Shown: positions 1 to 43,567 of the stretch, piece by piece
How positions within the stretch are numbered: the first letter of the stretch is position 1
How the letters are laid out: every line of letters begins with the position of its first letter
Origin: Spirochaetia bacterium
GTDB taxonomy: Bacteria; Spirochaetota; Spirochaetia; DSM-2461
DNA: 64,000 nucleotides
NCBI GenBank assembly: GCA_963668315.1
Contig: OY764216.1
Location: forward strand, 3,392,001 to 3,456,000
Reading direction: 5' to 3'
Program-made: the position numbers and the translations under genes
The notes under the pieces: generated by a model
Databases searched by the model: none
Told to the model about the DNA's origin: nothing
What the model saw: only the letters and a program-made list of their open reading frames with translations

Positions 1-2667
1 TGCGGGGCTTCCGGCGACGTCTTTGACCTGGTGATGAAGCTCAAGGGAATGGATTTCAAGGAGGCTCTGGCCTATCTGAAAGTGCCCCTGGCGGCTTATG
101 TTGAGACTCCGTCTCCCGTAAGGGTGACGGATGTCCAGCAACCGGCGGAGACGTTACCGGAACCGGAAGAGCCCGCTCCGGGCGCTAGTGTTGAGAGTGT
201 CTTAGACACTACCTTAGGTAGTTCGGTTCTGGAAAAAGCAAACCTGGATGACCTGGTGTCTTATTACGAGAAGAACCTGGCCGGGAATACCAAGGCCCAG
301 AACTACCTGAAAACCCGGGGCCTCCTGGACTGGGATCTCTTGAAAAGGTTCCGTATCGGTTTCTCCGATGGGAGCCTCAAGGGCCGTCTCTCCGAAGCCC
401 AGTACTCCGAGTTCAGGGATAGGGGGATCTTCCAGCCGAAGGGACAGGAGACCTTTGTCAGCTATATCGTTTTCCCTTTGCTGGACGAGCAGGACCGGCC
501 GGTCAGTCTCTACGGCCGGAAGATCGTGGACCGAAGCTCCCTACCGGCCCACCGCTACCTTAAGGGACCGCATAGCGGCCTTCTCAACGGGAAAGCCTTT
601 GGTGTTTATAAAGATCGAATGATCCTCTCTGAGAGCGTCATTGACGCCCTTTCTCTGATGGCATTAGGCTTTCAGAACGTCTGTCCCGTCTACGGCACCA
701 ACGGGGTCACCGGTGACCATTTTCGGATGATAGAAGAGAACCGGACGAAAGAGATTATCATAGCCTTCGATAACGACGAGGCGGGACGGAAGGCCTCCGA
801 AGAGCTGGCCGGTCGTCTTCTTTCGCTGGATACTTCCGTGAGAGTCGTTTCTCCTCCTGAAACTGTCAGTGATTGGAACGAGGCCCTTCTGGCCTCGTCC
901 CTGAAACAGGAGATAGAAGCCCTCATAGAAGCGGCCCCCTTGAGGAAACCGGAGAGCCTGGAATACCGCTCCGGGGTTCAGGTGGAAGAACGGGAGGGAA
1001 AATACTTCTTTACCGTCGGTTCTATTCTCTACCGGCTGATCGGTGTGAAAGAGGGTTTCGTTTCCTCTCTGAAGGTGAACATCCGGGCCGAGAAGGACGG
1101 GGAGAAGCACATAGACAACGTGGATCTCTTCTCCGCCCGGAGCCGGAGCAGCTTCGCCTATGCCCTGAGCCGCATCTTCGAGGTGGAGGCCGCCCGGGTG
1201 GAACGGGATCTGATCTCCCTTCTGGAATGGCTGGAAAGGGATCGGGACCGGAAACTCTCCGATCCCATTTCCATTATTGTCATAAGCCAGTCAGCCGTCG
1301 GTAAGAGCTACCTTATCGACACGGTCAAGAAGCTGATCCCTCCGGAGGATGTCCTTTCCATGACGAGCCTTTCCGACCAGGCCTTGAACTACCTTCCCGA
1401 GGAAGCCCTGCTTCACAAGTTCCTGATCATGGGAGAGGCGGTTCACTCCGATGCCGTGGATCACCAGATGAGGGAGATGCTTTCCGCCCAGGAGCTGAGC
1501 CGTCTGGTTACCACCAAGGACGAGAAGACCGGCAAGATGACAAGCCGCTTAGTCCGAAAGAAGGCCGTCGTTTCCGCCGTGATGAGTTCGGCCACCGGGG
1601 ATATCAACCCGGAGAACGCTTCCCGGTGCTTTGTTATCTCCACCGATGAGACGGAAGAGCAGACCCGGGCCATTCACCGGGAGCAGAGACGGAAATACTC
1701 GCTCGCGAGAATTCGGGAAAAACAGGAGGCTCTTCCTTCCATTGTGAAAGCCCACCACGCCGCCCAGAGGCTCCTGAAGGATGTGGTCATCATTAACCCC
1801 TTCGCCGACTATCTGGACTTCCCCGCCAGCCTCATGCGCTCCCGCCGGGACCATGAGCGTTTTATTGATTTGATCGCCTCGGTCTGCTATCTCAGGCAAT
1901 ACCAGAAACCTGAGCAGAAGGGGGGACTTAGTCCCCTTATTGAATGTGATCTTGAAGATTATAAGGTGGCCTATGACATCATGGTAAAGATCCTTCCTTC
2001 CACTTTATCGAACTTCCCCAAGAGCGCCCAGCTCCTGTATGAGACGATCCGGAGGATACTGAAGGAGAAGGCCGACCAGGAGAGCCTTCCTATTTCTGAG
2101 GTGTCGGTGACGCAACGGGAGATCCGGGAGCGGGAGGGACTGGAACACAACTTCGTGAAGCGGAACATCCGCCTTCTGGTGGAGTATGAATATTTGAACC
2201 AGAAAGGCGGCCAGAGCCGGGGCGGTAAGGCTTTTTACCGGATAAATCAGGACGGGCCGTTGTCCCTTTTTGATCTGTCGTCTATTCCCAAACCGGAAGA
2301 AGTGAAAGAACTTGTCAAAAGTGGGTCACGCCCTTTGACCCACTTTTATTTAAAGCGTGTAAAGGAGTTAGGAGAAAGTGGGTCAGGTTATGGAGAAAGG
2401 TATACCGAGAGAAAAGGTTTTCAGGGAGTTTTTGGTAGAGGAAAAGGTCCGGGGACGGACGGAGCAGAGCCTTTCCGGGGTACGCTCCCGGGTTCCCCTG
2501 TTCTTCCATTATCTGGAAGAGGAGAGAAGGGGAAATATCCTCACCGTAGGGATCAGGGAGGCCGCCGGTTACCAGGGCTGGCTTCTGAAAAGGAAGACTC
2601 AGGAGGGGAAGATTTATTCCGTCCGGACGGTGAACTCCTACTTTACCGCCGCCGGTTCCTTCTATGA
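1..2667 (+). CDS. CHC2 zinc-finger/Toprim DNA primase fused to a P-loop helicase-like domain (mobile-element type); 5' end lies outside the window; the tail past ~2390 overlaps the next gene and is doubtful
   Basis: Frame is open from base 1 (CGASGDVFDLV, end of a CHC2 finger); DnaG-like YLKTRGL...IGFSDG; Toprim ESVIDALS and AFDNDEAG, DWNE; Walker-A-like SQSAVGKS. Confidence 0.85.
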   Translation, partial: CGASGDVFDLVMKLKGMDFKEALAYLKVPLAAYVETPSPVRVTDVQQPAETLPEPEEPAPGASVESVLDTTLGSSVLEKANLDDLVSYYEKNLAGNTKAQNYLKTRGLLDWDLLKRFRIGFSDGSLKGRLSEAQYSEFRDRGIFQPKGQETFVSYIVFPLLDEQDRPVSLYGRKIVDRSSLPAHRYLKGPHSGLLNGKAFGVYKDRMILSESVIDALSLMALGFQNVCPVYGTNGVTGDHFRMIEENRTKEIIIAFDNDEAGRKASEELAGRLLSLDTSVRVVSPPETVSDWNEALLASSLKQEIEALIEAAPLRKPESLEYRSGVQVEEREGKYFFTVGSILYRLIGVKEGFVSSLKVNIRAEKDGEKHIDNVDLFSARSRSSFAYALSRIFEVEAARVERDLISLLEWLERDRDRKLSDPISIIVISQSAVGKSYLIDTVKKLIPPEDVLSMTSLSDQALNYLPEEALLHKFLIMGEAVHSDAVDHQMREMLSAQELSRLVTTKDEKTGKMTSRLVRKKAVVSAVMSSATGDINPENASRCFVISTDETEEQTRAIHREQRRKYSLARIREKQEALPSIVKAHHAAQRLLKDVVIINPFADYLDFPASLMRSRRDHERFIDLIASVCYLRQYQKPEQKGGLSPLIECDLEDYKVAYDIMVKILPSTLSNFPKSAQLLYETIRRILKEKADQESLPISEVSVTQREIREREGLEHNFVKRNIRLLVEYEYLNQKGGQSRGGKAFYRINQDGPLSLFDLSSIPKPEEVKELVKSGSRPLTHFYLKRVKELGESGSGYGERYTERKGFQGVFGRGKGPGTDGAEPFRGTLPGSPVLPLSGRGEKGKYPHRRDQGGRRLPGLASEKEDSGGEDLFRPDGELLLYRRRFLL
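2317..2385. repeat. AAAGTGGGTCA repeats: a perfect 12-bp inverted pair plus a third direct copy
   Basis: aaaagtgggtca 2317-2328 / tgacccactttt 2336-2347; aaagtgggtca 2375-2385. Confidence 0.85.
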
Positions 2668-3352
2668 ATACCTGAAACGAAAGAGCCTGGTTCCCGGGAA
2701 TCCCTTCCGATCCGTCCGCCAGGCCCGGGCCGATAAAACCCTTCCCCGGGATCTTCTCTCCGAGGAGGAAACGGACAGGCTCCTGGCCGCCCTCTTCACC
2801 TGGGAGGAGACCCGGGATATCCGCATCCCTTTGAGAAACTACAAGGTCCACCTCATGGCGGAGCTGATGTACTCCACCGGTCTCCGTATCGCCGAGCTGG
2901 CCGCCCTCAAGCCGGAGGACATCGACTTGAACGCTTCCCTTGTCCGGGTCTGGGAAGGGAAGGGGAGAAAGGACCGGATCTGCTACCTGAACGAGTATAC
3001 CCGTGAGATCCTAAGGATCTATTTGGAAGAGATGAGGCCGCTTCTCTCCGCCGGATGGAATGAAGGAAAGGAGACCCTCTTCTTCTCCTCCCGGGACCGC
3101 CTGGGTTCCGTAGCCAACAACCTCTTCAAAGACACTTGTAAGAAAAACACACTTAGTGTGCAGACCTGTCATGGCTTTCGTCATCTGATGGGATACCATC
3201 TTCTCCGATCCGGTTGTCCCCTTAGGTTCATTCAGCAGTTCCTCGGGCACTCCCGACTCCATACGACGGAGATCTATACCAAGGTGGATCAGGAGGAACT
3301 CAAGAACGTCATAGACCACTGTCATCCCCGACAGAGGAAAGCGGAGTTATGA
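2390..3352 (+). CDS. XerC/XerD-like tyrosine recombinase 1
   Basis: TGLRIAEL (R), GKGRKDR (K), HGFRH, LGHSRLHTTEIY; ATG 2390 is the likely start. Confidence 0.93.
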   Translation: MEKGIPREKVFREFLVEEKVRGRTEQSLSGVRSRVPLFFHYLEEERRGNILTVGIREAAGYQGWLLKRKTQEGKIYSVRTVNSYFTAAGSFYEYLKRKSLVPGNPFRSVRQARADKTLPRDLLSEEETDRLLAALFTWEETRDIRIPLRNYKVHLMAELMYSTGLRIAELAALKPEDIDLNASLVRVWEGKGRKDRICYLNEYTREILRIYLEEMRPLLSAGWNEGKETLFFSSRDRLGSVANNLFKDTCKKNTLSVQTCHGFRHLMGYHLLRSGCPLRFIQQFLGHSRLHTTEIYTKVDQEELKNVIDHCHPRQRKAEL

Positions 3353-4305
3353 TCTTCACGAGAGACCGGGCGGTCAATGTGATGAGGGAGTACATGAGAG
3401 AATCGGGCTATGCGGAGAGGACCGTCACGGGACGGGTTTACACTCTTCGCCGGTTCTTCGATTACCTGGGACCGGTAGATGTACGGGAAGTGAGCCGGGA
3501 AGATATCCACGGCTTTCTTCTGAGCCTGTCCGATACGGAATTGAAGCGTCACTCCAAGCAATTGATTCATAGCGCCATACGTCTCTTTTTCAAGGCTCTC
3601 TACGTGAAGGAGGTGATCCTGATTAACCCGGCGGAGGACTCCTTCTCCTTTCTGCCGGAGAGGGGGGAAACCAAGGTCATCTTTTCCGAGTCGGAGCTGG
3701 CCGGGTTTCTGGATAATATCGATATCAACAAACCCCTGGGACTCCGGGACAGGACTCTCTTTGAACTCCTCTATGCCACGGGGATGCGTTCCGGAGAGGC
3801 GGCCCGGCTCAGGGGGGAGGACATCAACGAAAAATCACGGACTATTCTGATCAGGCATACCAAGACCCGGCGGGACCGGGTGGTACCCGTTACGGAAACG
3901 GCCATGGCGTTTATTAAGATGTACCGGGGAAGGAGAAAAGGCGGCCCCGTCTTTCTGGGAACCGCCGGGCCGTTGCAGGGACCGGCCATGAATAACCGTT
4001 TCAAGGATCATCTGGCCGATCAGGGGATCTACCGGAAGGGACTGACCATTCATTCGCTGAGGCACTCGGCGGCGGTTCATCTTCTGCAGAACGGGGCGGA
4101 CATCCGGTATGTTCAGGAGCTTCTGGGTCATGATTCCTTGGAGAGTACGGTCATCTATACCCACCAGCTGCAGGAGGAACTCAAGCGGATCTATCGTACT
4201 CATCATCCCCGGGAGAACCGGTTTTTCAAGGAGGTGGATGAGGAGTACCGGCGGAAGATAGAGGAGCTGAAGGCTATGATTCTCTCGAAAGAAAAGAGCT
4301 GGTAA
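3349..4305 (+). CDS. XerC/XerD-like tyrosine recombinase 2
   Basis: TGMRSGEA, TKTRRDR, HSLRH, LGHDSLESTVIY; ATGA overlap with recombinase 1. Confidence 0.93.
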   Translation: MIFTRDRAVNVMREYMRESGYAERTVTGRVYTLRRFFDYLGPVDVREVSREDIHGFLLSLSDTELKRHSKQLIHSAIRLFFKALYVKEVILINPAEDSFSFLPERGETKVIFSESELAGFLDNIDINKPLGLRDRTLFELLYATGMRSGEAARLRGEDINEKSRTILIRHTKTRRDRVVPVTETAMAFIKMYRGRRKGGPVFLGTAGPLQGPAMNNRFKDHLADQGIYRKGLTIHSLRHSAAVHLLQNGADIRYVQELLGHDSLESTVIYTHQLQEELKRIYRTHHPRENRFFKEVDEEYRRKIEELKAMILSKEKSW

Positions 4306-4340
4306 TACCCTTGTTTCTGGGGTATGATTGTTTACGTATT

Positions 4341-5240
4341 ATGACGGTAACCGAAAGTAAGCCTTCAGATTTTTTACCTCACGTTTTCGGGGAGGGTCTC
4401 CCGGATTTTGAAGGTTCATCTTACTTCAATGCTCGGTGGTATGATGCGGATACGGGGCGGTTTATTACAGAGGATCCGGTTAGGGACGGCCTATTGTGGT
4501 ATGCCTATGCTAACAATAACCCCATGAAGTTCACCGATCCGACGGGGATGAGGCTCTCTGATCCGACTGAGGGATTGGATGAACATGACTTAGGTGTTGA
4601 TACGAATCCAAGTGCGGATGATTCTGGTTCGGGGTCGAGTTCAAATAATGATGAAGAGATATCTGAAGAGGAAAAAATATATAATCAGAACCAACCAAGG
4701 GAAAATGGTTTGGAAGAACTTCTAAACTATGATAGATTTGGCCCTGATCCTGATTCCTTGAATTACAATGATTTTGGACTTGATCCTAATCAATTGGATA
4801 AGATTCAAGAGGAAGTAGATGCTCATCTTGGATCAGCTGGTGGATTATATGGGAATAAAAATATGTGTGATGATTGGGCAAAGGATAGACTTGATAATGC
4901 AGGAGTTGATACTTCTGATTTGTTCGCAGGTGATCCTAATGGTACCAAAGTTGCTCAGGATATTGAAAATGCCCAAGAAAAAGGATTAGGAAGTTCTTTA
5001 CCAAAAGAAGGTTGGAGCCTTGTTTTTATGGGTAAATCGAAAGCTGGACTTGACGAACATGCTGGCCTTCTTAAAATGAATAGTGATGGATCAGGGACTT
5101 TTTATGATTCCTCTAGTACAAATGCTAATCAACTACCAGAAGGGCATAATTTTGATAATTTTGAAGATAAGTTCTCAAAAAGAGGTGGTGATAAATATGG
5201 TCACTATGAAACTCAAATATTTATTCCAGTTAAACCTTAG
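4341..5240 (+). CDS. Orphan Rhs C-terminal toxin module: 27-aa leader, Rhs core end, putative Cys/His (NlpC/P60- or CHAP-like) domain
   Basis: YFNARWYDADTGRFITEDP...NNPMKFTDPTG; tip has NMCDDWA...DEHAGLL...FYDSSS; AT-rich after DPTG. Confidence 0.85.
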   Translation: MTVTESKPSDFLPHVFGEGLPDFEGSSYFNARWYDADTGRFITEDPVRDGLLWYAYANNNPMKFTDPTGMRLSDPTEGLDEHDLGVDTNPSADDSGSGSSSNNDEEISEEEKIYNQNQPRENGLEELLNYDRFGPDPDSLNYNDFGLDPNQLDKIQEEVDAHLGSAGGLYGNKNMCDDWAKDRLDNAGVDTSDLFAGDPNGTKVAQDIENAQEKGLGSSLPKEGWSLVFMGKSKAGLDEHAGLLKMNSDGSGTFYDSSSTNANQLPEGHNFDNFEDKFSKRGGDKYGHYETQIFIPVKP

Positions 5241-5245: not shown

Positions 5246-6334
5246 ATGGGGGTCAGTTTGAAAAATAAAATATTAGTTTCATTACTTTTAGCAATAGCCC
5301 TTTCAGCTTGTTATTCTCAGGGGTTGATTTCCTTTTCGTATAACGGGAAAATCGGATATTTAAATGAGACATTGAACGTTATATTATCTCCTCAATATGA
5401 TTCTGGTTCAAATTTTTCAGATGGTTATGCTGTTGTTGAATTAGATGAGAAATCTTATGTGATTGATGTACATGGAAATATCTTATATTCGACAAATTCA
5501 AATAATATGCACTATCTCGGAGATTCATTATTTACCATGCAAGGTAATCATTTTTCTAATTTCGATGGATTATATCAAATTGTCAATATTGATTCAAAGA
5601 GAATCATAGCTGAAAGATTAGCAGAAGTGGATTGGGAAAGAGCTAGGGATAGTAGTGCAATATCTGTTTTATATTATGATAGTGATATCGGAATTTATTA
5701 TATCAATAGTGAGGGGGAGCCTCTTTTTGAAAATACTCCTATCTATGGAGGTTATTCATTTCAGGAAGGATACGCAGTCGTTATGGTTGATGATTGGCTT
5801 TCTGCAATTATGGATAATAATGGGAATCTCGTTGCTCAAGATTTCATGAGACTTGGTAGGTTCTTTTCTGAAGGATTATGTCCAGCTATGACAAAAGAAG
5901 GAAAGACTGGCTATGTGAATACTAATGGCCAATTTGTTTTTGAGATACCTTTAGATACTTCAGATTTAAACATGAGAAAAAGTACTCCTTTTGAAAATGG
6001 TCGAGCAATTATCAATTGTCTTGAAGATGAAGATTATTGGATTGTCATTGATAATAATGGAAATTATCAGTCTAGTGAAATTAGAGCTGATGATTGTTAT
6101 GGTTTTAACGAAGGAATGGCACTACTTCATAAATATTCTTATACTAATGATGAGCACACTTATGGTTATGTAAACTCACAAGGAGAGATTATATATGATT
6201 ATCAATTTTCCAAAGCCGATGATTTCTACAATGGTTATGCTCGGGTTATTATACAAGGTAGGGATGCGATTATAGATAAAGTCGGGAATATATATTATTC
6301 AAGTGATTTGATGAAAAATAACCCTAATCCATAA
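5246..6334 (+). CDS. WG-repeat lipoprotein, probable immunity protein
   Basis: Lipobox LSAC; repeated FSDGYAVV / FSEGLCPA / GYVN..G WG-repeat units; directly downstream of the toxin tip. Confidence 0.8.
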   Translation: MGVSLKNKILVSLLLAIALSACYSQGLISFSYNGKIGYLNETLNVILSPQYDSGSNFSDGYAVVELDEKSYVIDVHGNILYSTNSNNMHYLGDSLFTMQGNHFSNFDGLYQIVNIDSKRIIAERLAEVDWERARDSSAISVLYYDSDIGIYYINSEGEPLFENTPIYGGYSFQEGYAVVMVDDWLSAIMDNNGNLVAQDFMRLGRFFSEGLCPAMTKEGKTGYVNTNGQFVFEIPLDTSDLNMRKSTPFENGRAIINCLEDEDYWIVIDNNGNYQSSEIRADDCYGFNEGMALLHKYSYTNDEHTYGYVNSQGEIIYDYQFSKADDFYNGYARVIIQGRDAIIDKVGNIYYSSDLMKNNPNP

Positions 6335-6370: not shown

Positions 6371-6526
6371 CACCCCGGCGGCGGCTCCCCTCCGGTTCAC
6401 CCGTCTGCTTTGCAGACAGACCGCCTTTGTTCCGATAAGGCGCCTTATCGGAACAAAGCCTTGAACCGTCGCTCCGCACGCCAAAGGTAGACAGAAGCAG
6501 AGCCTCTGTCTACCGCCGGGGTAATT
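6371..6526. repeat. Structured GC-rich repeat, copy 1 (shorter variant)
   Basis: Near-identical to 39029 and 40502 over most of its length; 34-bp perfect palindrome at 6425-6458; outer stem ccccggcgg/ccgccgggg; ends GGGTAATT. Confidence 0.92.
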
Positions 6527-6616
6527 ACAACGCATGATTTACTGAAATATTCCCCTGACGAGTACAGATTAAGGTATAATATTCCTTAGAAGAATAGGAA
6601 TACAGTAGGATTAGCG

Positions 6617-10752: not shown

Positions 10753-10921
10753 AGTCGGTCCAGGCCTGGTGATAGGCGGTCATTGTTTTTACCCGGGCAT
10801 TTTTCAGGGTCGTACCAGCGGAAAAGAGAGTTATAGCTGTAAGGGAAATGATCGTCAATGCTACGAGCAAATCCACATAGAGATAGCCCTGATCACCAGC
10901 TAGTAATGTCCTCAGCTTCAC
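10721..10921 (-). CDS. Small minor pseudopilin (GspH/I-like), probable GTG start at 10921
   Basis: DQG|YLYVDLLVALTIISL; GGAGGAG upstream of the GTG; the longer ORF start overlaps gspG. Confidence 0.55.
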   Translation of the reverse strand: MKLRTLLAGDQGYLYVDLLVALTIISLTAITLFSAGTTLKNARVKTMTAYHQAWTDYEEQILEKTD

Positions 10922-34100: not shown

Positions 34101-37100
34101 ACATAATGACTCATCGGGAACAGATAGGGTCCAGTGGACGGTGTATGATCTTCCTACAGGAAATCCGATCCTTCAGCATGACGCCCTGGGATATGAAACG
34201 GAGTATGAGTACGACAACCTGGATCGGGTGACAAAAACGGTTAAACCGGATGATAATGATCTTTCAGGCGGTTCCCGCGACGATAATCCGGTTACTCTTG
34301 TTCATTACGATGATATCAATCTGACGACCACAGTTACCGATCCACTGGGTGCGAAAACGGTCTATTCCTACAACAATTTGGGGCAGCTTGTTACTATCGA
34401 AAAGGAGAACCGCTATCCCGCTTCGGAGACTATCACAACCGGACTTGAATATGACGGTCTGGGAAATATATCCGCAGTAATCGATCCCAGAAATAATAGA
34501 ACCCAGTATGGTTATGATGGGATCAAACGACTGATATCTGAAACCTATTACGATGGGGAAGATACGGGCTCTAACAATTATCAAAAGACCTATTCCTACA
34601 ATAACTCGTTAAACCGGAGAACCGTTACGAACGAAGAGGGTGTCATCACCTACGAATATCTGGATATGAGAGGGAATGTTGTTAAGAAAGTCGAGTTGGA
34701 CGCGAACAAATGGACTTACAGAACGAATCAAGCAGTATATACTCTTGCCAACCAGCCTCTGAAAACGGAAGCACCCCTGAACCTCGTGAATGAGTATTAC
34801 TACAATGCGGCTGGACAGCTCCAGGATGAATTAGAGCCCGAGATGACGGGTTTTGATGGGAATGATGATTTTACCGGTCGTTACTGGCACCATCTTGATT
34901 ATAACAATCAGAATCAGCTTGCTGAAGAACGTGTTCTTGCCGCTGAAGGCTCTTCAGGATTGCCGACTTCGATGCCTACTGACTTCCTGGCGGATAAAAC
35001 GTTTGAATATAACGGGGCGGGAGAACTGATAAGTGAGAACTACTACTACCATGACGGGGATGGTGTTCTAAATGCACAGACCGTAAAACATATCTACGAC
35101 GAAAAGGGTAGGGAGCTAGAGACTATTGACGGCAATGGTATCAGCACATTCAAAGAATATACTGCCCGTGATCAGGTGTCAGCGGAGATAGATGCTCTGG
35201 AAAGCCGAACCACCTATCTCTATGATGATAAGGATCGTGTCCTGTCCATGACGGGACCGAGGGGGAATTCGGGGAACTACCCGGCTCTGGATTTCACCAT
35301 TGCGTACGATTATGATGATCTGAACCGGCTGATAAAGGGATATCTACCCAGACGTGCCGATCAGAGCAGCAAACCTGAAGTCACTCTTAATTATGATAAG
35401 AGGGGTAATCTTCTGAACCGGAGCGAACCGGATGGGGGAGTCACGTCCTATGAGTATAACTTCAGGAACTGGCCGACCACAGAAACAAAGAGCGGAATAG
35501 ATGGGGAAGGGAATAGCCTGGAGTATGAAACTTCCTATTCCTATGACCGAGTGGGAAATCGGGAGACCATGACCAATGCCATGGGAACCTGGACCAGCAC
35601 CTATGATGCTTTTAATCGATTGACTCAAACAACGGATCCCACAGGGGCTGCCACTACCCTTAAGTACGATAAGCTGGATCGACAGATAAAAACTACCGAC
35701 GGCAATGGGAACAGCACAAGCTTTGTGTATGACCTTTATGGCAACCTGACCTCTCAAATCGATGCAGCCGGTTATACGACAGTCTATGAATTTGATCTTC
35801 TGGGTAATCGGACCAAACTGACCGATCCCCGGAACAATTCCTGGGTAACATCCTATGATGAACTGTCTCGGGTTAATAAGGAGATAAACAGCCGTGGCGG
35901 TCAGGCCCTCTATTCTTATGATGAGGGGGGACGTTTGCTTCAGCTTATCGATCCCAATGGGACGACTATCGATTATCTCTACTATGATACGGGGCTCCCT
36001 CGAAGAGTGGCTTATACGAATGGCAGTCAAACGCAGGTCGAATCCTATACCTACGATGAAGCGGGAGCTGTTAAGACGGCGACCCTGGATGGAGTTGTGA
36101 AGGAGTATAATCTTGTTGACGGTTCCTATCAGCCTGATCCGATGGGGCTTATTACCGGCCAGAGCGTCAGCTTCGACGGAAAATCCTATACCACCGATTA
36201 TAACTATGATGTCATGAACCGTCTGAGTGACATCGGATATGCCGGAGGACTTACTATCAGCCAAAGTTGGAATAATCTAGGACAATTGGAGGGAATCACC
36301 AATTTCGCTTTCGGGTTTACCTATAATAATGTGGGATACCTGGAGAGTTATGAGCAGAATAACGGAGTTTCCGTCAGCTATGACTTCACGGATAATGGGC
36401 TTCTAGCTTCTCTGGATTATCGCAAGGCAAACAGTATGGAATCTCTTCTGGGCTATGCCTATTCCTATGATGATGCGGGAAATATGACTGCCAGGAATGG
36501 GGATGCCTACGGTTATGATGTGAAGAATCAGATGATAACAGCCAGTATCGTAGGCGATAGTCTAGCTACAGAAGAATCGGTCGATTACGCGAAGGCATTA
36601 CATGTGAGCGAGGATATCCTGGGACAGGAGAAGGCTGTTCTGGTAGGGGATACGGTTGTTCTTGATGTAACCGCTTCCTCCCTTGTTATTGACTACACCT
36701 ACCCGAAGAGGATATCCAAGGTTATTATCACTCCGGATGAGGTGGACCATAGAATTACTCCCTCTACCCTCGCCGTATTTACCTCCATGTATAACAACGA
36801 AGGGTACTACGATGAAGTGGTTGATCCGGAAATCACCATTGATGAAGCAACAGGAGTGATAACCGTGGAGTTCGCCGGAGGCCAATATGCCCGGTATATG
36901 AAGCTGCACTGCCACTTTAATGAATTGAATGAAGATGGTTCCAGCAACACCGGTTCTGCCAGCTTTAGGATCTCCGGTTCCGATGCAGTGGAAGCTTATG
37001 CCATCGTGGGGGGACGAAATGAGTTCTACATCTACGATGGGAAAGGAAACCGTATCTCGAAGAGTATCATGTCAACTGATATTGAGAGTAGTCAGTACGA

Positions 37101-38568
37101 GTACTATTCCGATTCGGATCTTTTATTGAATAACGGTTATGGTAAGTATTATTACGCCTATGATGCCAATGGAAACCTTACGGAGAAAGGTACGGAGGCA
37201 ACGGTTAAAGGTGACGAAGTAGATATTACCGATCCCGATGAGTTGACCGGCACGGCCGATGGGGATTATGCTTATTTCCGTTATACCTACGATTTGAAGA
37301 ACAGACTGGTCCAAGTTGATAAGTCTGTCGAGGGTGTGGTCATCCCCGTTGCCTCTTACACTTATGACGTGGATGGCTATCGTGTCTCAAAAACCGATCG
37401 TGATGAGAGTGTTATAGATTATGTTTTTGATCTGAACGGAAAGATCCTGGAAGAGATTTCAGCTGATGGCTCTTTACAGTATGTTTTCATCAAGGAACGG
37501 CATCTGGCTAGGATAGAGGGGGACAGCACATTGTTCTATGGAACGGATCATGTGAATTCAACAGTACTCATGACTGATGAGAATGGTGAGATCGTTTGGT
37601 CCGGTGATGTTTCGCCCTTTGGAGATTATTCGGTGATCGATTCCGATGCTTATGAGGAAATCGGACTGAAGTATAGCGGAAAGGATCTGGATGAGGATAC
37701 GGGGCTGATGTACTTCAATGCACGGTGGTATGATGCGGATACGGGGCGGTTTATCACAGAGGATCCTGTGAGGGATGGCCTAAATTGGTATTCATACGTT
37801 TCGAATAACCCGATGAAGTTCATTGATCCGACGGGGTTAATGACTGATGAACATAGAGAAGAATATGCTGATTTAGAGTCAAATGGTGCATCACAAGAAG
37901 AATTACAGACTGCACGTGAAAGATTTGAACAACAGGAACGTGAACACATTGATGATCTAACATCAATCTATAAAAGTAATTCAACTACGGAAACGGGTAA
38001 GGATGTTCTTAAAAAGACTATTCTTGAATATATGGGATTCTATAATAGGGATATTGTTCCTGACTCCGTAGAGGATTATGGTGGAACTAAAGTAACTGGT
38101 GATTTTGATGCTATTGAAGGTTATGAGAATATTGAGAGTCCGCATCCTGGCCTAGACTTTGTAGGAGGAGTTGGAGTCGCAACTCCTTTCTATACTGTAT
38201 TTGATAAAGCAACAACAAATCAAGATTCAAAGCCCTTCGTCTTATCAGTTCCTGGCACTGATATTCGTATGAGGATTAAGCATGGTGATGAAACAGATGT
38301 AATGAACTTAATGAAAGGTGTTCATAAGGGTGGATTAAATTCATTTACACCTTCACAGATGATTATTCCATTTCCCAAAAATAATAATGGTAGTTCTAGC
38401 ACTAATCCTCATTTTCATTTGGAGATGACTGCAAATAGAGGCTCTTCTGATGATCCCAGACGATTTATCAATCCTCTTGGGTTGAAAACGGGCAAATCTT
38501 TAGAGTATTTATATAATAAAGGGACGAAAGATAATCCAGAGTGGATGAAGACGAATAGATATTTCTAA
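28150..38568 (+). CDS. Giant Rhs/YD-repeat polymorphic toxin with signal peptide and C-terminal M23-peptidase-like tip
   Basis: Sec signal; discoidin- and Ig-like N-region; YD repeats ~33.6-37.7 kb; core YSGKDLDEDTGLMYFNARWYD...NNPMKFIDPTGL; tip HPGLDF...IKHGD...NPHFHLE...FINP (HxxxD/HxH). Confidence 0.92.
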   Translation: MKMKLLNKTLLSLTMIFTLSSLVWGQSSNQNEIDRINESGILGDARLESMSFSNNYGNLTPPELMLDQDVSTSYGLTETAGSAWVRLDFQDPVYLYGLTYEGLVPEGGMIFLQTEIDDRIVTLPSGYVNGSRSNGLIDVSLERMVSDNLILRIEGEDLSAFRLDEIELISEASDSILQKKELVPEDQSYNRFSLNNDNLLVDGQIGTVWNNTNRGMKNQVYWMFRRVLQEGYHDFEKWRVKDDLILNVITPGEMEFLKIFFTEEAQGTLTLSVHSDDNWVDAVEMHLERERGWQKVDLSLLGEIDQIRFSMEDPRQRWKPGVYGGIGEVELWAKDKPDQNRIIDLLNPDSLVNSKGLVFDIPDLREENHWLEIAESGSSETLPSIYLNSLELGEGIRFESNGMTYWEVPVPYYILTDTANTLRVDSTDDRDVISLQISTRKGNPNDFSDPHLNDGRLLSGRDYSETPLEESFNSGEMDIEEFRLYHGENGSENVYVEDGGIRTSLIAHDSNSYRDIYTVEGKADLLGMGFPGDLYEMEIAGSQNEILTPQIKLIYPEPGVELPQSSTHHQKVIGITDYPEGRITVNGVRAQVSGNYFWVEMRDLRINQPGEYDITAEVRHRNGNTGSDVAPILVEDESISLLLDQNDDLYYTREGSFTFSGNVRGGYIDLVANGETIEVSRRDGFTKTFALDEGLNYFTFQLMARDGETILKREVRQVFFQASTGGLKVTSPVSGGYTNQENITVSGSVIPWGLTSVFVNGTEATIDGQTFNCVCPLSEGENILTVSASYDTGDVFDVQITVYRDSTSPVIISVEPADGTISGDSSIIVSGYVQEDNAFTLFINGTVIETVGASFRTLTPLASEGNNSIQITARDRAGNEAVYPIFQIFRDTTGPVPFTVSSNVSGWTNNNRPIISYSTSDEGIGLSHYEVSINGHAFYPQESPYQVPYLPDSTDDEAVPVIVRAYDLLGNYTDSEIDFYIDTVAADVPSDFRAIPGKDDLELKWIETDDDVCSYILQIDNEEVNVSSEMGVEDEENSIVLFSYRIEDLEVGDVLSCQLLSVDRAGNLSESVDTTGLVGLSIVSLVEDEPLIVEYDDVNLFISPDTLPDEVTEVIVQELESEPFKESAVNPILSPVYSFTALTADEIKNHIVFDDLYVGTMEYNEKLIPEGFPEYNLAVYYFDTNWSKWVKVDRSAVDVDHNMIVFSSDHFTEFSVQATTMEDITPQELADVSFPQFSNKIAHTPVTVSPQGGSVSTSMTELVLPGKNGLDLDIRRIYDSATARGDAAGLNMYASVSLSDIITGSASDLIKQIGLNVLSGTVSAIEGSIEKYFQNNGDYSYSLGQGWRLNFPYLKTNNGGVMVRTPKGSFYNITSMDVDWDQSVSIGAARTLTLENHEGEDFTLKVSQIRADVSVSSLKDSVSNLKNALTEVIGSDTDFANGLTNYLNLAKSIENLIPSWITVGASLYTKEGNIYNFDILGRLSSITNATGDVIEFSYDDSLLLDYIIDTYGRKVRFEYQWVNGVSVSVPQVSRIWVEDDDREINYTYQEDRSDCMGQQLTSAFKLSLPLLDTATDVEGRTYDYDYDDKFLLASNIGAKINGIGLVLDILSYWTGGLTSRINSALGISGLTVYGGVQFEWIFPIERVEGSGIGVTKLDTDVTTLSYFAYDYCDYILGYIPTGMSFELASQERPCYSSLNRYVDGNLVFNESYSYNFTYGGYKQFYNSKTVVTNDYLRTEYSYSKKTLTRERCLDFSDVLAGGIFQDSHEIRDVVSLNTGITRYNLVGGSQYLDTKKMSYNNGLRLTYEKTAQAVDMYREVNYSYDGWGNQVKITTTEQAGEITSSQIISNQFQDNGISGYTNPFGSLTLNSPHIHDRLRGTVVSETVSGGILDEPRTLDNKVSWYDYNEYGQRTEERTLIDDADGEIWKTQKYEYYPVDGSFESGQLKASIAMDGEDELLRTDVEYTFDSGSYTQKRTSRDIIQHNDSSGTDRVQWTVYDLPTGNPILQHDALGYETEYEYDNLDRVTKTVKPDDNDLSGGSRDDNPVTLVHYDDINLTTTVTDPLGAKTVYSYNNLGQLVTIEKENRYPASETITTGLEYDGLGNISAVIDPRNNRTQYGYDGIKRLISETYYDGEDTGSNNYQKTYSYNNSLNRRTVTNEEGVITYEYLDMRGNVVKKVELDANKWTYRTNQAVYTLANQPLKTEAPLNLVNEYYYNAAGQLQDELEPEMTGFDGNDDFTGRYWHHLDYNNQNQLAEERVLAAEGSSGLPTSMPTDFLADKTFEYNGAGELISENYYYHDGDGVLNAQTVKHIYDEKGRELETIDGNGISTFKEYTARDQVSAEIDALESRTTYLYDDKDRVLSMTGPRGNSGNYPALDFTIAYDYDDLNRLIKGYLPRRADQSSKPEVTLNYDKRGNLLNRSEPDGGVTSYEYNFRNWPTTETKSGIDGEGNSLEYETSYSYDRVGNRETMTNAMGTWTSTYDAFNRLTQTTDPTGAATTLKYDKLDRQIKTTDGNGNSTSFVYDLYGNLTSQIDAAGYTTVYEFDLLGNRTKLTDPRNNSWVTSYDELSRVNKEINSRGGQALYSYDEGGRLLQLIDPNGTTIDYLYYDTGLPRRVAYTNGSQTQVESYTYDEAGAVKTATLDGVVKEYNLVDGSYQPDPMGLITGQSVSFDGKSYTTDYNYDVMNRLSDIGYAGGLTISQSWNNLGQLEGITNFAFGFTYNNVGYLESYEQNNGVSVSYDFTDNGLLASLDYRKANSMESLLGYAYSYDDAGNMTARNGDAYGYDVKNQMITASIVGDSLATEESVDYAKALHVSEDILGQEKAVLVGDTVVLDVTASSLVIDYTYPKRISKVIITPDEVDHRITPSTLAVFTSMYNNEGYYDEVVDPEITIDEATGVITVEFAGGQYARYMKLHCHFNELNEDGSSNTGSASFRISGSDAVEAYAIVGGRNEFYIYDGKGNRISKSIMSTDIESSQYEYYSDSDLLLNNGYGKYYYAYDANGNLTEKGTEATVKGDEVDITDPDELTGTADGDYAYFRYTYDLKNRLVQVDKSVEGVVIPVASYTYDVDGYRVSKTDRDESVIDYVFDLNGKILEEISADGSLQYVFIKERHLARIEGDSTLFYGTDHVNSTVLMTDENGEIVWSGDVSPFGDYSVIDSDAYEEIGLKYSGKDLDEDTGLMYFNARWYDADTGRFITEDPVRDGLNWYSYVSNNPMKFIDPTGLMTDEHREEYADLESNGASQEELQTARERFEQQEREHIDDLTSIYKSNSTTETGKDVLKKTILEYMGFYNRDIVPDSVEDYGGTKVTGDFDAIEGYENIESPHPGLDFVGGVGVATPFYTVFDKATTNQDSKPFVLSVPGTDIRMRIKHGDETDVMNLMKGVHKGGLNSFTPSQMIIPFPKNNNGSSSTNPHFHLEMTANRGSSDDPRRFINPLGLKTGKSLEYLYNKGTKDNPEWMKTNRYF

Positions 38569-38577
38569 GGGTAGAAT

Positions 38578-38988
38578 ATGAGAAATAAATTTATATTATT
38601 ATTGTTTCTGATAACTTTCAGTATTATTTATAGTGAAACTCCTAATTACGAGGGCACATGGGCAAGTAATTCTCAATTGAGTACTACTATTCAAAGTACC
38701 TTTTTATCGATTACAAAGTTTTCAGAAAATCAATATTTAGTAACTTCTGTAAGTAATCGTATGGATATACTTACTTATATTGGTGGAGGTTATGTTAACG
38801 AAAATGGTTATTTAGTTGTTTCAACAGATCAAGGAGATACTTGGATTTTTTCAGAAGTATTCAGTTCTCGATATGATGAAGTCATTTCTATATCTGATGC
38901 AAATATGAATGAAGGATATGAAGATTATTATAGGTTACATGATAAATTCAAAACGTGGCCATTTGATAACCTGACCGTTGAGAAATAA
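38578..38988 (+). CDS. Signal-peptide protein, probable immunity protein for the M23 tip
   Basis: MRNKFILLLFLITFSIIYS signal; starts after a 9-bp gap behind the toxin stop; AT-rich like the tip. Confidence 0.7.
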   Translation: MRNKFILLLFLITFSIIYSETPNYEGTWASNSQLSTTIQSTFLSITKFSENQYLVTSVSNRMDILTYIGGGYVNENGYLVVSTDQGDTWIFSEVFSSRYDEVISISDANMNEGYEDYYRLHDKFKTWPFDNLTVEK

Positions 38989-38992
38989 TTAA

Positions 38993-39020
38993 ATTTACCA
39001 TAAGGAGTCTTATGTTAACA
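38993..39020. other. dif-like site (11-6-11)
   Basis: ATTTACCATAA-GGAGTC-TTATGTTAACA; arms are 10/11 and 9/11 matches to the canonical XerD arm TTATGTTAAAT. Confidence 0.55.
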
Positions 39021-39028
39021 AATTATGT

Positions 39029-39300
39029 CCACGCCCCCGGCGGCGGCTCCCCTCCGGTTCACCCGTCTGCTTCGCAGACAGACCGCCTTTGTTCCGATTA
39101 GGCGCCTTATCGGAACACGGGCCTGGTCACAAACCTACGGTTTGTTGCTCGGCCATGCATCCTGCTTGAACCGTCGCTCCCCACGCCAAAGGTCAACTGA
39201 AACAAAGCGTGCCTGTTTCAGGCGGGTAATTGATTCAGGTGAAGTGCAATTTTGCACTGCTGGTCATCCCTCCTGTTTTGGTATATGATGTTTACTGATC
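39029..39300. repeat. Structured repeat, copy 2, plus putative promoter segment
   Basis: Near-identical to 40502-40774; palindrome at 39090-39117 with one mismatch; gtgcaattttgcac at 39244-39257. Confidence 0.93.
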
Positions 39301-40080
39301 ATGGTATTATTGGAGAGTAAGCCTTCTGAATTTTTGCCTCACTTTTCCGGGGAGGGTCTCCCGGAATTTGAAGGTTCATCTTACTTCAATGCACGGTGGT
39401 ATGATGCGGATACGGGAAGGTTTATCACAGAAGATCCGATTCGGTCAGGGTTTTTATGGTATACTTACTGTTCGAATAATCCGGTTAAATACGTAGATCC
39501 AACTGGGTTGATTGATATTGAAGCTGCAGATTTACAAGATAGAACATCTGGCCGTGATGTAGTACGTGGTGAATATCAGAAAATATATTTTGATGAAGTG
39601 ACTCAATCAATCAGAGCTGAGTATAAAGATCCATTTGAAGGTAATCTTTGAAAGACTTTTGAAAGAGGCTTAACCGGGGAGGGGGAATATGGTTCTTCTA
39701 GCACTTCCATGGGGGTTGAGTTAGAAGCTGCAATGTCTCTTGATGATATGGATTTTTATTTATCCGGTGAAGCAGAGATTGCTGATATAGAACTTGGGGA
39801 ATTGAAACCAGAGAATCCTATTGTTTTAACTTCGAATATTGATGCTTGGGGGGCGGAAGGAAAACTTGGTTTTGATGGCTTACTTCCTCAAGCAGATTTG
39901 GCATTTTATGTTGTACGCGGTAGCTTAACTATATCAGCAAGAGTTATTGATCAGTCACGTCTTGATATTACAGCTGGTATAGGTATCGCTGCAGGATTAG
40001 GATTTAAAACTAATGAAGTCGGATTTACAGCTCATATTTTACCCATTACGATAAGTGCTTCCATTGAGGATAACGAATAA
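39301..40080 (+). pseudogene. Orphan Rhs tip module interrupted by one in-frame TGA (39649-39651)
   Basis: ORFs 39301 and 39709 share a frame and the 19 codons between them are open; leader + YFNARWYD...DPTGL; Gly-rich C-terminus. Confidence 0.82.
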
Positions 40081-40382
40081 TGAAAATGAAGTTATATCTA
40101 TATGTTTTGAGTTTTTTATTTCTTGCTAATACTTTTTTTGCAGCATTCTATAGCCAATCTGTTATTTCACAAAATGGCGGTAGTGCTGATATGGGAAAAA
40201 TTGAGGATAATCGTTATTATCTATGGCTTGATGGCAATTTTTCTGAATGCCCTGGAACTGTTTGGTACAAAGTAGAGAAAGTCGAATCATATGCAATGAT
40301 AAGTGGTTATTTAGGACAGGCTAGTTTATTATTTTTGGCAATATCGATAGGAATCTATTTCGTAAAGAAAAGAAAACGATAA
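40080..40382 (+). CDS. Small membrane protein, probable immunity protein
   Basis: Hydrophobic segments at both ends; start overlaps the tip stop codon. Confidence 0.65.
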   Translation: MKMKLYLYVLSFLFLANTFFAAFYSQSVISQNGGSADMGKIEDNRYYLWLDGNFSECPGTVWYKVEKVESYAMISGYLGQASLLFLAISIGIYFVKKRKR

Positions 40383-40501
40383 GGTTTTAGCGAATTATTC
40401 ACTCAGGGAATTTGTTCGTTTTCACCAAGCCCCCATTCGCTGCGCGAAAGGGGCCTCCCCGCTGTCGGTCCAACCGAGCCCTCCCTGCCCGAACGGATCA
40501 C

Positions 40502-40774
40502 CCACGCCCCCGGCGGCGGCTCCCCTCCGGTTCACTCGTCTGCTGGCGCAGACAGATCGCCTTTGTTCCGATAAGGCGCCTTATCGGAACACGGGCCTGG
40601 TCACAAACCTGCGGTTTGTTGTTCGGCCATGCATCCTGCTTGAACCATCGCTCCGCACGCCAAAGGTCAACAGAAACAAAGCGTGCCTGTTTCAGGCGGG
40701 TAATTGATTCAGGTGAAGTGCAATTTTGCACTGCTGGTCATCCCTCCTGTTTTGGTATATGATGTTTACTGATC
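40502..40774. repeat. Structured repeat, copy 3, plus putative promoter segment
   Basis: Perfect palindrome tgttccgataa-ggcgcc-ttatcggaaca at 40564-40591; gtgcaattttgcac at 40718-40731. Confidence 0.93.
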
Positions 40775-41617
40775 ATGGTATTATTGGAGAGTAAGCCTTC
40801 AGAATTTTTGCCTCACTTTTCTGGGGAGGGTCTTCCGGAATTTGAAGGTTCATCTTACTTCAATGCACGGTGGTATGATGCGGATACGGGGAGATTTATC
40901 ACAGAGGATCCGATTCGGGATGGGTTATTGTGGTATGCCTATTGCAACAATAACCCCATGAAGTTTACCGATCCGACGGGGATGATAGCGACTCATGGTT
41001 CTACTAAAGATGATGAAGAAGAGACTAAAAAGGCTGATGAGGAGAAAGAGAAAAAGCCTAGTGGTAGTGGAAAAAAGAAAGATGGCGCTGAAGAAAAATC
41101 TGAAGAAGAGAATATTTATGATAGAGAACAAGAATTAAGAGAATTAAAAGAAGAAAATGATAAGTATTTAACTAAATTACAGAACTATGAGCACTTTGGT
41201 CTTGATCCTGACTCTTTAAAAGAAGTTCCAGTTCCTCAAACTCCGTTTGATGAAAATGACGAACATTGTGATATAAATTCATGGAATCAAGCAAAAGATC
41301 AGGGGCTAGATCCAACTCCTCCAGGTGGAACTGCTTGGAATGGAAATGATTTAACTGTTGATGAAATCTCAAAATTATATCCAAATAAAACAGATGCACC
41401 ATTAGAAGGGACAAAAGGTTTTGGATTTATTGATAATGATGGCAATAAGGTTACAAAAGAACATATGATGTTTTATGATAATACTGATTCTGATCCAAAT
41501 ACATATAATGCTTATGATAGTAATGGAATTGATGATCAAACAAAAAAGACATGGTCAATGAATGGTGAAACTGTACGCAATGGATCATTTTATGCAATTA
41601 CTGAAGAATGGTGGTAG
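40775..41617 (+). CDS. Orphan Rhs tip module with putative Cys/His domain, related to 4341-5240
   Basis: Leader peptide identical to that at 39301; HCDINSW...KEHMMFYD...YDSNG; linker NYEHFGLDPDSL resembles NYDRFGPDPDSL. Confidence 0.85.
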   Translation: MVLLESKPSEFLPHFSGEGLPEFEGSSYFNARWYDADTGRFITEDPIRDGLLWYAYCNNNPMKFTDPTGMIATHGSTKDDEEETKKADEEKEKKPSGSGKKKDGAEEKSEEENIYDREQELRELKEENDKYLTKLQNYEHFGLDPDSLKEVPVPQTPFDENDEHCDINSWNQAKDQGLDPTPPGGTAWNGNDLTVDEISKLYPNKTDAPLEGTKGFGFIDNDGNKVTKEHMMFYDNTDSDPNTYNAYDSNGIDDQTKKTWSMNGETVRNGSFYAITEEWW

Positions 41618-41630: not shown

Positions 41631-42931
41631 GATAGTGTACAATAGTGTCTGTAAATTAGAAATAAAGGGGGCTTGAAAAAGTTAGCCAATCAGTCTTCGA
41701 TTAGTTCGACCAAAAACAAAAGAAGGCATCATGACTAACGAGGATTACTATACCGTTTTCGATCAAATGATTGAAGAGCTCCAGGCAGATAATCGAGAAG
41801 GATTAACAAAGGTCATAAGTTCAATAATGAATTTATCTATGCGGTTAGAGCAAGAGAAGGCAATCCAAGCCAGTCATTATGAACGGAATGACGATCGCAT
41901 TGGCCATAGAAACGGGTACAAAAGCAGGAAGATTCGAACTCGTGTAGGTGAGATCCCTATCGAGATTCCGCAGGTCCGTGGGATGGAATTCTATCCTGGC
42001 AGCATTGAAAAAGGGTGCCGCAGCGAAAGGGCGTTGAAAATGGCAATAGCTCAGATGTATATCCAGGGGGTATCAACTCGCAGAGTAACCAAAATTGTAG
42101 AACAGCTCTGCGGCTTCGAAGTTTCCCAATCCCAGGTTTCTGAAGCAACCGCACTGCTGGATGAAGAGATTTCTAAGTGGCGGAATCGCCCTCTGGGAGC
42201 TTTTCGCTATCTCATTGTGGATGCGACCTATGAAAAAGCTCGTGTGGATAGAGCTGTCGTTTCGGCAGCCGTTCTAATTGCTTATGGAGTTGATAATAAG
42301 GGAATGAGAAGGGTTCTTGGGATTTCAACAGAACTCAGCGAGGCTGATGTTCATTGGAGAAAGTTCCTCGCTGGATTGGTTGACCGAGGTTTACATGGAG
42401 TCAGAATGATAACTTCAGATGCCCATAGTGGTCTAAAATCTGCAATAGAGGCTGTTTTTCCTACGGTTCCCTGGCATCGCTGTCAGTTTCATCTCCAGCA
42501 GAATGCTTCTCATCACGTTCCCAAGAAGAGCATGGAGAAGGAGGTAGCAGAAGACATCAGAACTATTTTTAACGCACCCAATGGAGAAGAAGCGAAACGC
42601 TTTCTTTCAATGGCTGTTAAAAAATATGAGGAAACGGCGCCCGATCTGAGTAGCTGGATGGATGAGAATATCCCCGAGTCCCTTACCGTCTTCTCAATGC
42701 CAAAGGCTCATTGGCGACGGCTAAGAACTTCAAATTTGGCAGAGCGGCAGATGAAAGAAATAAAGAGGCGAACAAGGGTAGCCATGATATTTCCAAATAG
42801 GAAGTCCGTTGATCGTCTGATCGCGGCTCTGTTAATGGAAATAGATGAGCAGTGGTTTACAGGTAAAAGATATTTGAATATGGAGACTGATTAACTTTTT
42901 CTAATTTTACAGACAAAAGGGTTGCTTTATC
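41631..42931 (+). mobile_element. IS256-family element with 8-bp target duplication ATGAAAAA
   Basis: Imperfect IRs GATAGTGTAC...TGTCTGTAAA / GATAAAGCAA...TGTCTGTAAA; DR at 41623-41630 and 42932-42939. Confidence 0.93.
41731..42894 (+). CDS. IS256-family transposase
   Basis: HRNGYK, QGVSTRRV, VDATYEK, TSDAHSGL, RCQFH, RTSNLAER. Confidence 0.95.
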   Translation: MTNEDYYTVFDQMIEELQADNREGLTKVISSIMNLSMRLEQEKAIQASHYERNDDRIGHRNGYKSRKIRTRVGEIPIEIPQVRGMEFYPGSIEKGCRSERALKMAIAQMYIQGVSTRRVTKIVEQLCGFEVSQSQVSEATALLDEEISKWRNRPLGAFRYLIVDATYEKARVDRAVVSAAVLIAYGVDNKGMRRVLGISTELSEADVHWRKFLAGLVDRGLHGVRMITSDAHSGLKSAIEAVFPTVPWHRCQFHLQQNASHHVPKKSMEKEVAEDIRTIFNAPNGEEAKRFLSMAVKKYEETAPDLSSWMDENIPESLTVFSMPKAHWRRLRTSNLAERQMKEIKRRTRVAMIFPNRKSVDRLIAALLMEIDEQWFTGKRYLNMETD

Positions 42932-43567
42932 ATGAAAAAGATAAGTATTTTGTTATTGTTATGTCTTGGTTCCGTAGTTTTTTCGGAGGATGTTGTTCTA
43001 GAATATTATTTAGATGATGGAACTATTCAATATCGAACTGTTGACTCTAGTATTGAAGAGTTAAGAATCAATAAGGGGAAAACAACAAAAGTTCTTGGGC
43101 TTGAAAAGTTGATAAATTTAAAAACTCTTGTCATCGATCGAGCATATCGTATGAGTGACTACTCATTTATAGAAGAAGCTAAAAATCTCGAAGTATTAGT
43201 GCTTCGTTTTATGGAAATAGATAATTATGATTTTATTAGCCCTTTACATGAATTGAAAGCTTTAATAATCCAGTCTTCACAAATTAAAAACTATAAACTT
43301 AATCTATCAAATAATAGAGAATTGTCTTATTTAGAGATTACAAATTCTAAATTACAAAAAATGGTGGAGATTGAAAACTTCCCTTGTCATTTAGGTAAGA
43401 TAAACTTTGCATATAATTTAATATCAGATGTTACTTCCTATGAGGGACACAATTGTGATATTTTTCTTATTGGAAATCCGATTCCTGAGGAGAATTTTGA
43501 TAGTAATATCATTCTTGAAACATTTTATGATTTAATTCCAATAGAGTATCAAAGGTTTATTCAATGA
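42932..43567 (+). CDS. Signal-peptide leucine-rich-repeat protein, probable immunity protein for tip 40775
   Basis: MKKISILLLLCLGSVVFS; LRR units LEKLINLKTLVI, NLEVLVLRF, LKALIIQSS, LSYLEITNS. Confidence 0.78.
   Translation: MKKISILLLLCLGSVVFSEDVVLEYYLDDGTIQYRTVDSSIEELRINKGKTTKVLGLEKLINLKTLVIDRAYRMSDYSFIEEAKNLEVLVLRFMEIDNYDFISPLHELKALIIQSSQIKNYKLNLSNNRELSYLEITNSKLQKMVEIENFPCHLGKINFAYNLISDVTSYEGHNCDIFLIGNPIPEENFDSNIILETFYDLIPIEYQRFIQ

Follow-up and report, generated by a model that had tools for sequence, protein, structure and literature searches.

Tyrosine-recombinase elements that would exchange the toxin tips of Rhs and related genes at a short site in the coding sequence

Rhs proteins gain new C-terminal toxin tips while old tip-immunity pairs are kept downstream, and how this happens has been asked since at least 2009, when Jackson et al. 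modeled circular tip displacement by homologous recombination: a circle with a core and a tip integrates by one crossover, donates its tip, and shunts the old tip downstream, no integrase being known with Rhs (PMC2935791). Kirchberger et al. likened this displacement to integrons, in which a tyrosine recombinase inserts units at a primary site, pushes older units downstream, and leaves arrays that can be re-ordered, and reported no evidence for an integrase (PMC5361080). Both accounts invoke homologous or illegitimate recombination and say that no integrase is known to take part (PMC2935791, PMC5361080). Orphan Rhs and contact-dependent inhibition (CDI) modules are tip-immunity pairs downstream of a full-length gene that can be fused to it or expressed internally; the relevant sections of these papers describe no dedicated recombinase, leader, or engine (PMC3967940, PMC7043789). 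Tyrosine recombinases and intergenic repeats are linked to other interbacterial-conflict genes, namely, the orphan immunity arrays of the rAID systems of Bacteroidales (PMC12247911) and the XerC/D-linked polyimmunity loci, where the link is to immunity genes only (PMC3482391). Here, we analyzed a 64,000-nucleotide stretch of contig OY764216.1 (the window, whose positions are used throughout) from the 5.6-Mb genome of a Spirochaetia bacterium (G000), in which Rhs tips adjoin a module encoding a primase-helicase and two Xer-like tyrosine recombinases. From comparisons with related loci, we put at roughly 0.85 the probability that this module belongs to a real, widespread, and apparently undescribed class of integrative elements exchanging polymorphic-toxin tips. 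No description of such an element was found in the literature searched, which left subscription journals and supplements outside, and prior notice is possible, the neighborhood being common in enterobacterial annotations.

The locus resembles each of these systems in part. Compared with the circle of Jackson et al., the junction is fixed and spans 8-15 bases, and the predicted circle carries recombinase and replication genes. Arrays of the rAID type are without toxin tips, primase, or delivery-protein fusion, whereas the elements here carry a core with a tip and a primase. The element would work like an integron with its primary site inside a toxin gene, where insertion makes a protein fusion, yet its recombinase scores far below the IntI cut-off and travels inside the unit, and the promoter would lie at the unit's right end. 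Phages and islands with integration sites in coding genes supply a 3′ end equivalent to the one replaced, and the R64 shufflon inverts fixed segments in place. Both offer a likeness, in the new in-frame 3′ end and in the exchange of a C-terminal domain by a tyrosine recombinase, respectively; the difference is that here a mobile unit would deliver an unrelated domain together with an immunity gene.

Four exact copies of an Rhs core motif start at 4422, 37711, 39382, and 40856, and none arose in 100 shuffles. An earlier interpretation made from the letters of this stretch (the sequence-only reading) had placed the motif at these positions and held that the full-length gene diverges from the orphan copies exactly 5′ of it; comparison of the full-length Rhs body gene with the orphan cores bore this out. 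The motif coordinates likewise give the 1671 and 1474 bp that it had assigned to two recombinase-free units, A and B. The features of the locus, all on the forward strand, are as follows.

1-2667, +, CHC2-zinc-finger/Toprim primase-helicase of the window module (module 2), starting 225 bp left of the window
2378-3352, +, tyrosine recombinase Xer1, catalytic R-K-H-R-H-Y intact
3349-4305, +, tyrosine recombinase Xer2, catalytic residues intact
4298-4421, +, leader, read as the right arm (attP/attR side), with a weak sigma-70-like site, an ATG, and 27 codons in frame with the core
4422-4432, +, junction core, within the Rhs core at the codons for Y-F-N-A, a crossover window deduced from relatives
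4422-5240, +, orphan core and tip, read as displaced from the Rhs gene left of the window
5246-6334, +, WG-repeat protein, presumed immunity protein by position
6373-6530, +, structured post-immunity repeat, no Rfam match
28150-38568, +, full-length Rhs2 (3472 aa), body junction (attB/attL side) at 37711
37711-39381, +, unit A (1671 bp, no recombinase): core-tip, presumed immunity gene (38578-38988), repeat (39029-39258), leader (39259-39381)
39382-40855, +, unit B (1474 bp, no recombinase): core-tip, presumed immunity gene (40080-40382), repeat (40502-40732), leader (40733-40855)
40856-41617, +, terminal orphan core and tip, with a short post-core stretch in common with the tip at 4422
42932-43567, +, LRR-like protein, presumed immunity protein of the terminal tip

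The evidence that such units integrate comes from relatives. In genome G022, a 9,157-bp element, measured from junction to junction, stands at two unrelated sites with 99.68% identity over 9,303 aligned bases. Both copies have the same left tip and immunity gene and different right tips; thus, the left tip appears to travel with the engine and the right tip to have been resident. The junctions comprise 12 and 14 identical bases, and at one site, a 40-bp identical stretch further into the core was left unused. An empty-site search in the genus of G022 returned relatives lacking the whole island, including the core stub, and no clean empty allele. Tandem same-tip copies stand behind a full-length Rhs gene in G010 (9,800 bp, 99.93% identical), Aureibacter (8,169 bp, 99.98%), and Aureispira, and in all three, the tip and immunity gene of the body are repeated at the head of the second copy. 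In Aureibacter, the cores of the element and of the resident gene have about 8 bases in common at the junction and match at 49 of 120 positions overall. For a distant homologue with one recombinase in E. coli, the filled allele has 16,625 bp more than the empty one, an insertion flanked by a 15-bp core that is single in the empty allele. The tip behind the last leader in E. coli CREC-2 is the one fused to the Rhs body at the same locus in the element-free strains JNE151685 and A34. In Enterobacter, the junction lies in a CdiA-like gene, where it covers 14 bases at the VENN codons. The aligned loci show directly the unit boundaries, the short shared cores, the donation and displacement of tips (in the E. 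coli pair), and the recurrence across phyla. At this family level, the same element at different sites, tandem copies, an empty and filled pair, and very short shared cores support the sequence-only reading's model, in which a circle integrates at the core, gives its tip to the resident gene, and pushes the previous tip downstream.

Junctions fall into classes by lineage (TGKE, YFN, DGxNW, NP, and an internal linker). On a quick Xer2 tree of 51 rows (30 others dropped, 6 as identical and 24 as unclassified; weaker matches not entered), junction class required 10 changes against 29.6 after shuffling, with 0 of 200 shuffles as low, although the labels used the start of a hidden Markov model match as a proxy, were set by hand for two classes, and are shared by kin. 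One recombinase clade (L098, L100, L110, L113, L120, and L124) has its junction in the internal linker, hundreds of residues past the Rhs core.

In the mechanism that we propose, the attachment site would be a short conserved stretch that immediately precedes the variable tip of polymorphic-toxin genes. A complete unit would consist of a core-tip, an immunity gene, a repeat or cargo, a helix-turn-helix (HTH) gene, small open reading frames (ORFs), parA, a primase-helicase gene, one or two tyrosine recombinase genes, and a leader. A single crossover between the leader-core site of a circle and the body-core site of the chromosome, within about 8-15 shared bases, would fuse the element's tip in frame to the resident body and place the former tip-immunity pair behind the leader, which would act as an outward promoter, often with an in-frame start, such that the displaced immunity gene, and perhaps the tip, would still be expressible. 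Each recombinase lineage would have a position of its own in the core. As toxin core forms the right half of every site, pairing would in principle be open between any body site and any leader site downstream, and arrays could be re-ordered or collapsed like integron cassettes. Units A and B would be internal-deletion derivatives of a sister element that kept the repeat and the leader. The circular intermediate, catalysis by the element's own recombinases, replication by its primase-helicase, and promoter function of the leader are inferred parts of this proposal.

RecA requires longer identity than the 8-15 bases shared at these junctions. A rival explanation is that the host makes and re-inserts the circles by homologous recombination between Rhs cores, with the primase-Xer module a passenger once inserted near a tip. 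The circle model published in 2009 is of this kind (PMC2935791), a fusion of the homologous-recombination type was shown in Salmonella over 522 bp at 95% identity (PMC3967940), the window cores are 70-90% alike, and the variable body lengths on some relatives' orphan cores (15-134 codons), as well as a 485-bp body fragment in the E. coli array, are as it predicts. What makes it very improbable as the driving process is that five independent cases show only 8-15 identical junction bases with longer identical stretches unused, that junctions are fixed per recombinase lineage where variable core fragments and long high-identity crossovers would be expected, and that all four orphan cores of G000 start exactly at a leader. 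The variable body remnants and a 35- to 36-base identity between window cores indicate that homologous exchange also acts on these arrays.

The sequence-only reading had advised looking left of base 1 for an upstream tip or Rhs body, and a second full-length Rhs gene, preceded by a 2703-aa counterpart of the Ig-like protein upstream of Rhs2, was found there. A second parA-primase-xer-xer module (module 1) also lies there; its leader is unrelated to that of module 2, and its junction is 64 bases further into the Rhs core. Module 1 falls with the DGxNW group on the Xer2 tree, and YFN is the junction of module 2 and of both units. The six Rhs cores that the genome has all lie here, two in full-length genes and four orphan, each of the latter directly behind a leader. 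For the tip at 4422, the best reading is one displaced from the upstream Rhs gene, and the arrangement points to two recombinase lineages (two engines) nested in one Rhs locus. The current tip of the upstream Rhs (L002 3885-3950) and the displaced tip (4548-4615) have similar first residues, and 111 of 124 positions agree between the two cores, a likeness that a simple nested-insertion history fails to predict. Between the upstream Rhs immunity gene and the 5′-truncated module 1 parA, L002 6074-9633 holds a 350-aa Replicase-family gene and an IS481-ExeA pair.

Both Xer pairs keep every catalytic residue, and Xer2 groups loosely with recombinases of the same YFN junction. Scores of 169-213 bits against the XerC and XerD profiles (cut-offs 330-335) place the recombinases below the chromosomal XerCD/dif type; other xer-like genes are present elsewhere in the genome. 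They also remain at 98-117 bits against the IntI profile TIGR02249 (cut-off 265). No conjugation, relaxase, or capsid genes were found among the unit's genes, so that the content is not that of integrative conjugative or mobilizable elements, prophages, or satellites. The phage collection gave no match, and viral contigs gave one distant match without the recombinase pair.

The leader had been described as about 80 bp long, preceding three orphan cores and beginning within about 40 bp of the second Xer stop. Three copies are indeed present, the only ones in the genome, but the homology spans about 125 bp and starts at 4298, inside the last xer2 codons, with 25-26 differences in 125 columns between the module and the units. 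Homology between module 2 and the units begins at the −35 position of the weak promoter-like site. The leaders of A and B differ at three positions of the 27-codon ORF, all three synonymous, and at none in the promoter part, and module 2 and both units have the same 23 bases around the junction. Across the family, 29 non-redundant leaders were scored with an ad hoc sigma-70 score, which was higher on the forward than on the reverse strand in 25 and beat shuffles at p≤0.05 in 14; the frame in phase with the core stayed open for a mean of 32 codons versus 15.5. Single-strand folding of leader plus core gave weak structures. A dyad at the junction was higher at leader than at body sites in three lineages and not in four. 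The right arm would keep the displaced immunity gene expressed, and it may make a toxin-antitoxin (TA) pair of the displaced tip, by analogy with what is described for Salmonella orphans (PMC7043789).

Of 7,999 candidates scored with the C-terminal half of the primase, whose domain is catalogued as PF27228, 852 proteins reached E≤1e-20. Xer2 matches occurred in 10 of 61 related genomes and in 11 of 401 genomes sampled from the phylum, G000 included. Of 22 loci with an Xer2 homologue (two of them G000's own), 20 have a leader and an Rhs core behind it, the two misses ending at contig ends. The structured repeat also stands behind two orphan tips in the congener G003, where no xer2 was found (genome 90% complete, in 370 contigs). 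The order HTH gene (reverse strand), small ORFs, parA, primase, xer, xer recurs across 44 loci, with a full-length Rhs gene upstream where contigs allow. Downstream of the 16 non-G000 loci of the phylum sample, six have a core, four the internal-linker motif, and six neither within the short flank, two of these last having a junction further on; several of these loci are the same contigs as in the 44-locus set and are not independent. Relatives were found in Spirochaetota, Bacteroidota, and Pseudomonadota, proteobacterial members having one recombinase, and 37 records of a plasmid collection matched (Pseudomonadota, Leptospira, and Bacteroidota). Among 13 plasmid records inspected, seven show a large gene of the Rhs, hemagglutinin, or adhesin type followed by a small gene, the engine, and more small genes; two are small circles of units only, and one is unannotated. 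A circular record of 11,289 bp contains two units, both starting at leader-type junctions, and no toxin body. In 56 of 5,426 E. coli genomes, genes annotated "xerC" and "DNA primase" lie beside Rhs/CDI loci, and such genes can be re-read as one element family.

Two further loci types came up alongside. At L140, L141, L156, and L174, Xer2 is followed by long open frames and a second gene without an Rhs core, possibly other toxin-family targets. In Leptospira (L136, L264, and L133), an HTH-primase-recombinase block lies behind a large M23-type gene and is followed by parA/parB, with no tip junction.

If the proposed mechanism is right, the family provides a candidate enzyme, defined sites, and a vehicle for the gain of tips, and a recombinase family with a different short coding motif as the in-frame target of each lineage would be of mechanistic interest. 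A bolder version has cross-phylum recombinases acting at the domain boundary in numerous polymorphic-toxin families, Rhs and CdiA/TpsA among them, and forming, together with the mini-units, an on-demand, integron-like re-arming switch, in which an end promoter keeps displaced immunity expressed and A and B are live substrates of the window Xer pair. We advance it tentatively, at somewhat less than even odds.

Several observations weigh against tip exchange by site-specific integration, in the family or in the window. Ten orphan cores start at the junction with only a lookalike of about 9 bases upstream and no engine in the stretch fetched, and the simple model leaves this loss of the engine unexplained; no case of a leader followed by plain host DNA was found. 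Among the seven plasmid records with a large gene, a junction was located in five and none was found in the other two, and in three of the 13 records, all from Leptospira, the recombinase is followed by parA and not by a tip. An 8,758-bp circular record includes a body fragment and has its match in a tandem array on E. coli chromosomes, and the small circular records may be collapsed tandem repeats. In-frame start codons occur in 20 of 29 leaders versus 31 of 58 in the other frames, the promoter score of the window leaders has p=0.15, and the junction dyad at the three window leader sites (8/11) is reached by 8.4% of random positions. Relative to six homologues, the window primase lacks about 60 residues before the Walker A region and reads past the usual stop, and it is probably defective. 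After the junction, the window cores agree completely over 35-36 bases and are 67-70% identical beyond; hence, RecA-type exchange is possible for A and B. Contigs from four of the five sequencing runs for the source sample, which cannot show rare circles, contained no circle or alternative fusion.

Orphan cores after an approximately 9-base lookalike of the body site, at sites without an Rhs body or engine, were seen at L285, L286, L290-L293, L052, L059, and L047, and one such site carries different tips in two species. Secondary junction sites just behind immunity genes (L138 12101, L298 27131, and L134 16086) give two-tip units; integration at a secondary site followed by excision at a body site would let an element capture a resident tip.

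Units A and B had been taken as dependants of the left module. Their leaders are only about 80% identical to that of module 2, which argues for an origin in a sister element and not in module 2 itself. They share one repeat-leader fusion (94.6% over 443 bp) and carry unrelated cargo, as if a single deletion event in the sister element had later come to carry two tips at the same junction (YFN) as module 2. Whether they can still move is close to an even call. The family could be real and site specific with A, B, and module 2 as immobile relics, one deletion product having been duplicated and one tip replaced by homologous exchange between core and repeat. We rate this an even bet: the shared fusion, an in-frame stop in the unit B tip (39649-39651, also present in source-sample contigs), the damaged module 2 primase, and leaders about 20% different from module 2's speak for it, and the intact catalytic residues of both Xer pairs, the 23 identical junction bases, the unchanged promoter part, and the synonymous leader-ORF changes of A and B speak for continued function. 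Engine-free leader units also arose separately in three other genomes: those of G010 and G030 keep remnants of the xer2 3′ end, and in G026, the leader lies behind a repeat-like hairpin. One of the two units of a Lonsdalea circle is also without a recombinase. Should A and B move, they would do so in trans.

The structured repeat claimed behind three of the four tip-immunity pairs was confirmed as an 83-bp sequence (6373-6455, 39035-39117, and 40508-40591) with strong predicted folding (z of −7.8 and −3.1). The terminal pair lacks it, as had been said; behind that pair lies a 97-bp block with 88% identity to a block that follows the tip upstream of the window module. Rfam gave nothing at E≤0.5 in window positions 1-45000 and one unrelated match in four loci, and the repeat is not conserved across the family. 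In G022, the element backbone switches tips within the post-immunity region. The repeat marks the right side of a tip-immunity block and not an element end, and given the G022 switch and the G003 tips without xer2, it is probably a point of cargo exchange. Degenerate paired hairpin blocks at 8974-9186 and L002 17030-17290 recur in post-immunity regions. These hairpins look attC-like by eye, and the genome's own IntI, above its family cut-off, is encoded elsewhere (C1:3134160), so that an integron integrase could be imagined to move tip-immunity blocks at hairpins in the repeat. With the mapped junction in the core beside the leader and not in the repeat, and with a repeat that is neither conserved nor matched in Rfam, we consider this the least probable explanation of all.

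The same mechanism could serve the element more than its host. Selfish integrative replicons might use toxin genes as a safe landing site, the tip repairing the gene and acting as an addiction module, with diversification a by-product. Tandem identical copies are frequent, many type II TA genes are carried as cargo, orphan tips occur at sites without a toxin body, and the leader would supply a promoter and start as in the Salmonella orphan Rhs TA modules (PMC7043789). The carried tips, in contrast, are diverse unrelated domains and not copies of the resident 3′ end. This explanation, which seems to us plausible but short of an even chance, is compatible with the proposed mechanism and differs in purpose only.

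Rhs2 has the features of polymorphic toxins (YD repeats, a core with a DPxG motif, a variable tip, and an adjacent immunity gene), and the window tips and their neighbors are putative toxins and immunity proteins. Pfam gave no match of note on the tips, and the upstream Rhs tip matched no solved structure; atlas searches of the window tips gave leads only, among them a resemblance of the current Rhs2 tip to M23 peptidases. Source-sample contigs support the assembly. Two contig joints considered as rearrangement evidence were rejected, as single-copy unitigs of the upstream locus share core and repeat blocks. Two further features complete the Rhs2 locus.

19607-28144, +, Ig-like protein (2845 aa) upstream of Rhs2
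41631-42931, +, IS256-family element, its 8-bp target duplication falling at the start codon of the following gene

The latter sits between the terminal tip and its immunity gene and is one of three IS256-family copies clustered at the end of the Rhs2 array (41631-47451), with many more in the genome. A type II secretion-like cluster (secretin, E, F, G, and prepilin peptidase; 9248-19196, reverse strand) lies between the giant Ig-like/Rhs loci, divergent from the second one, and is a candidate link to Rhs export.

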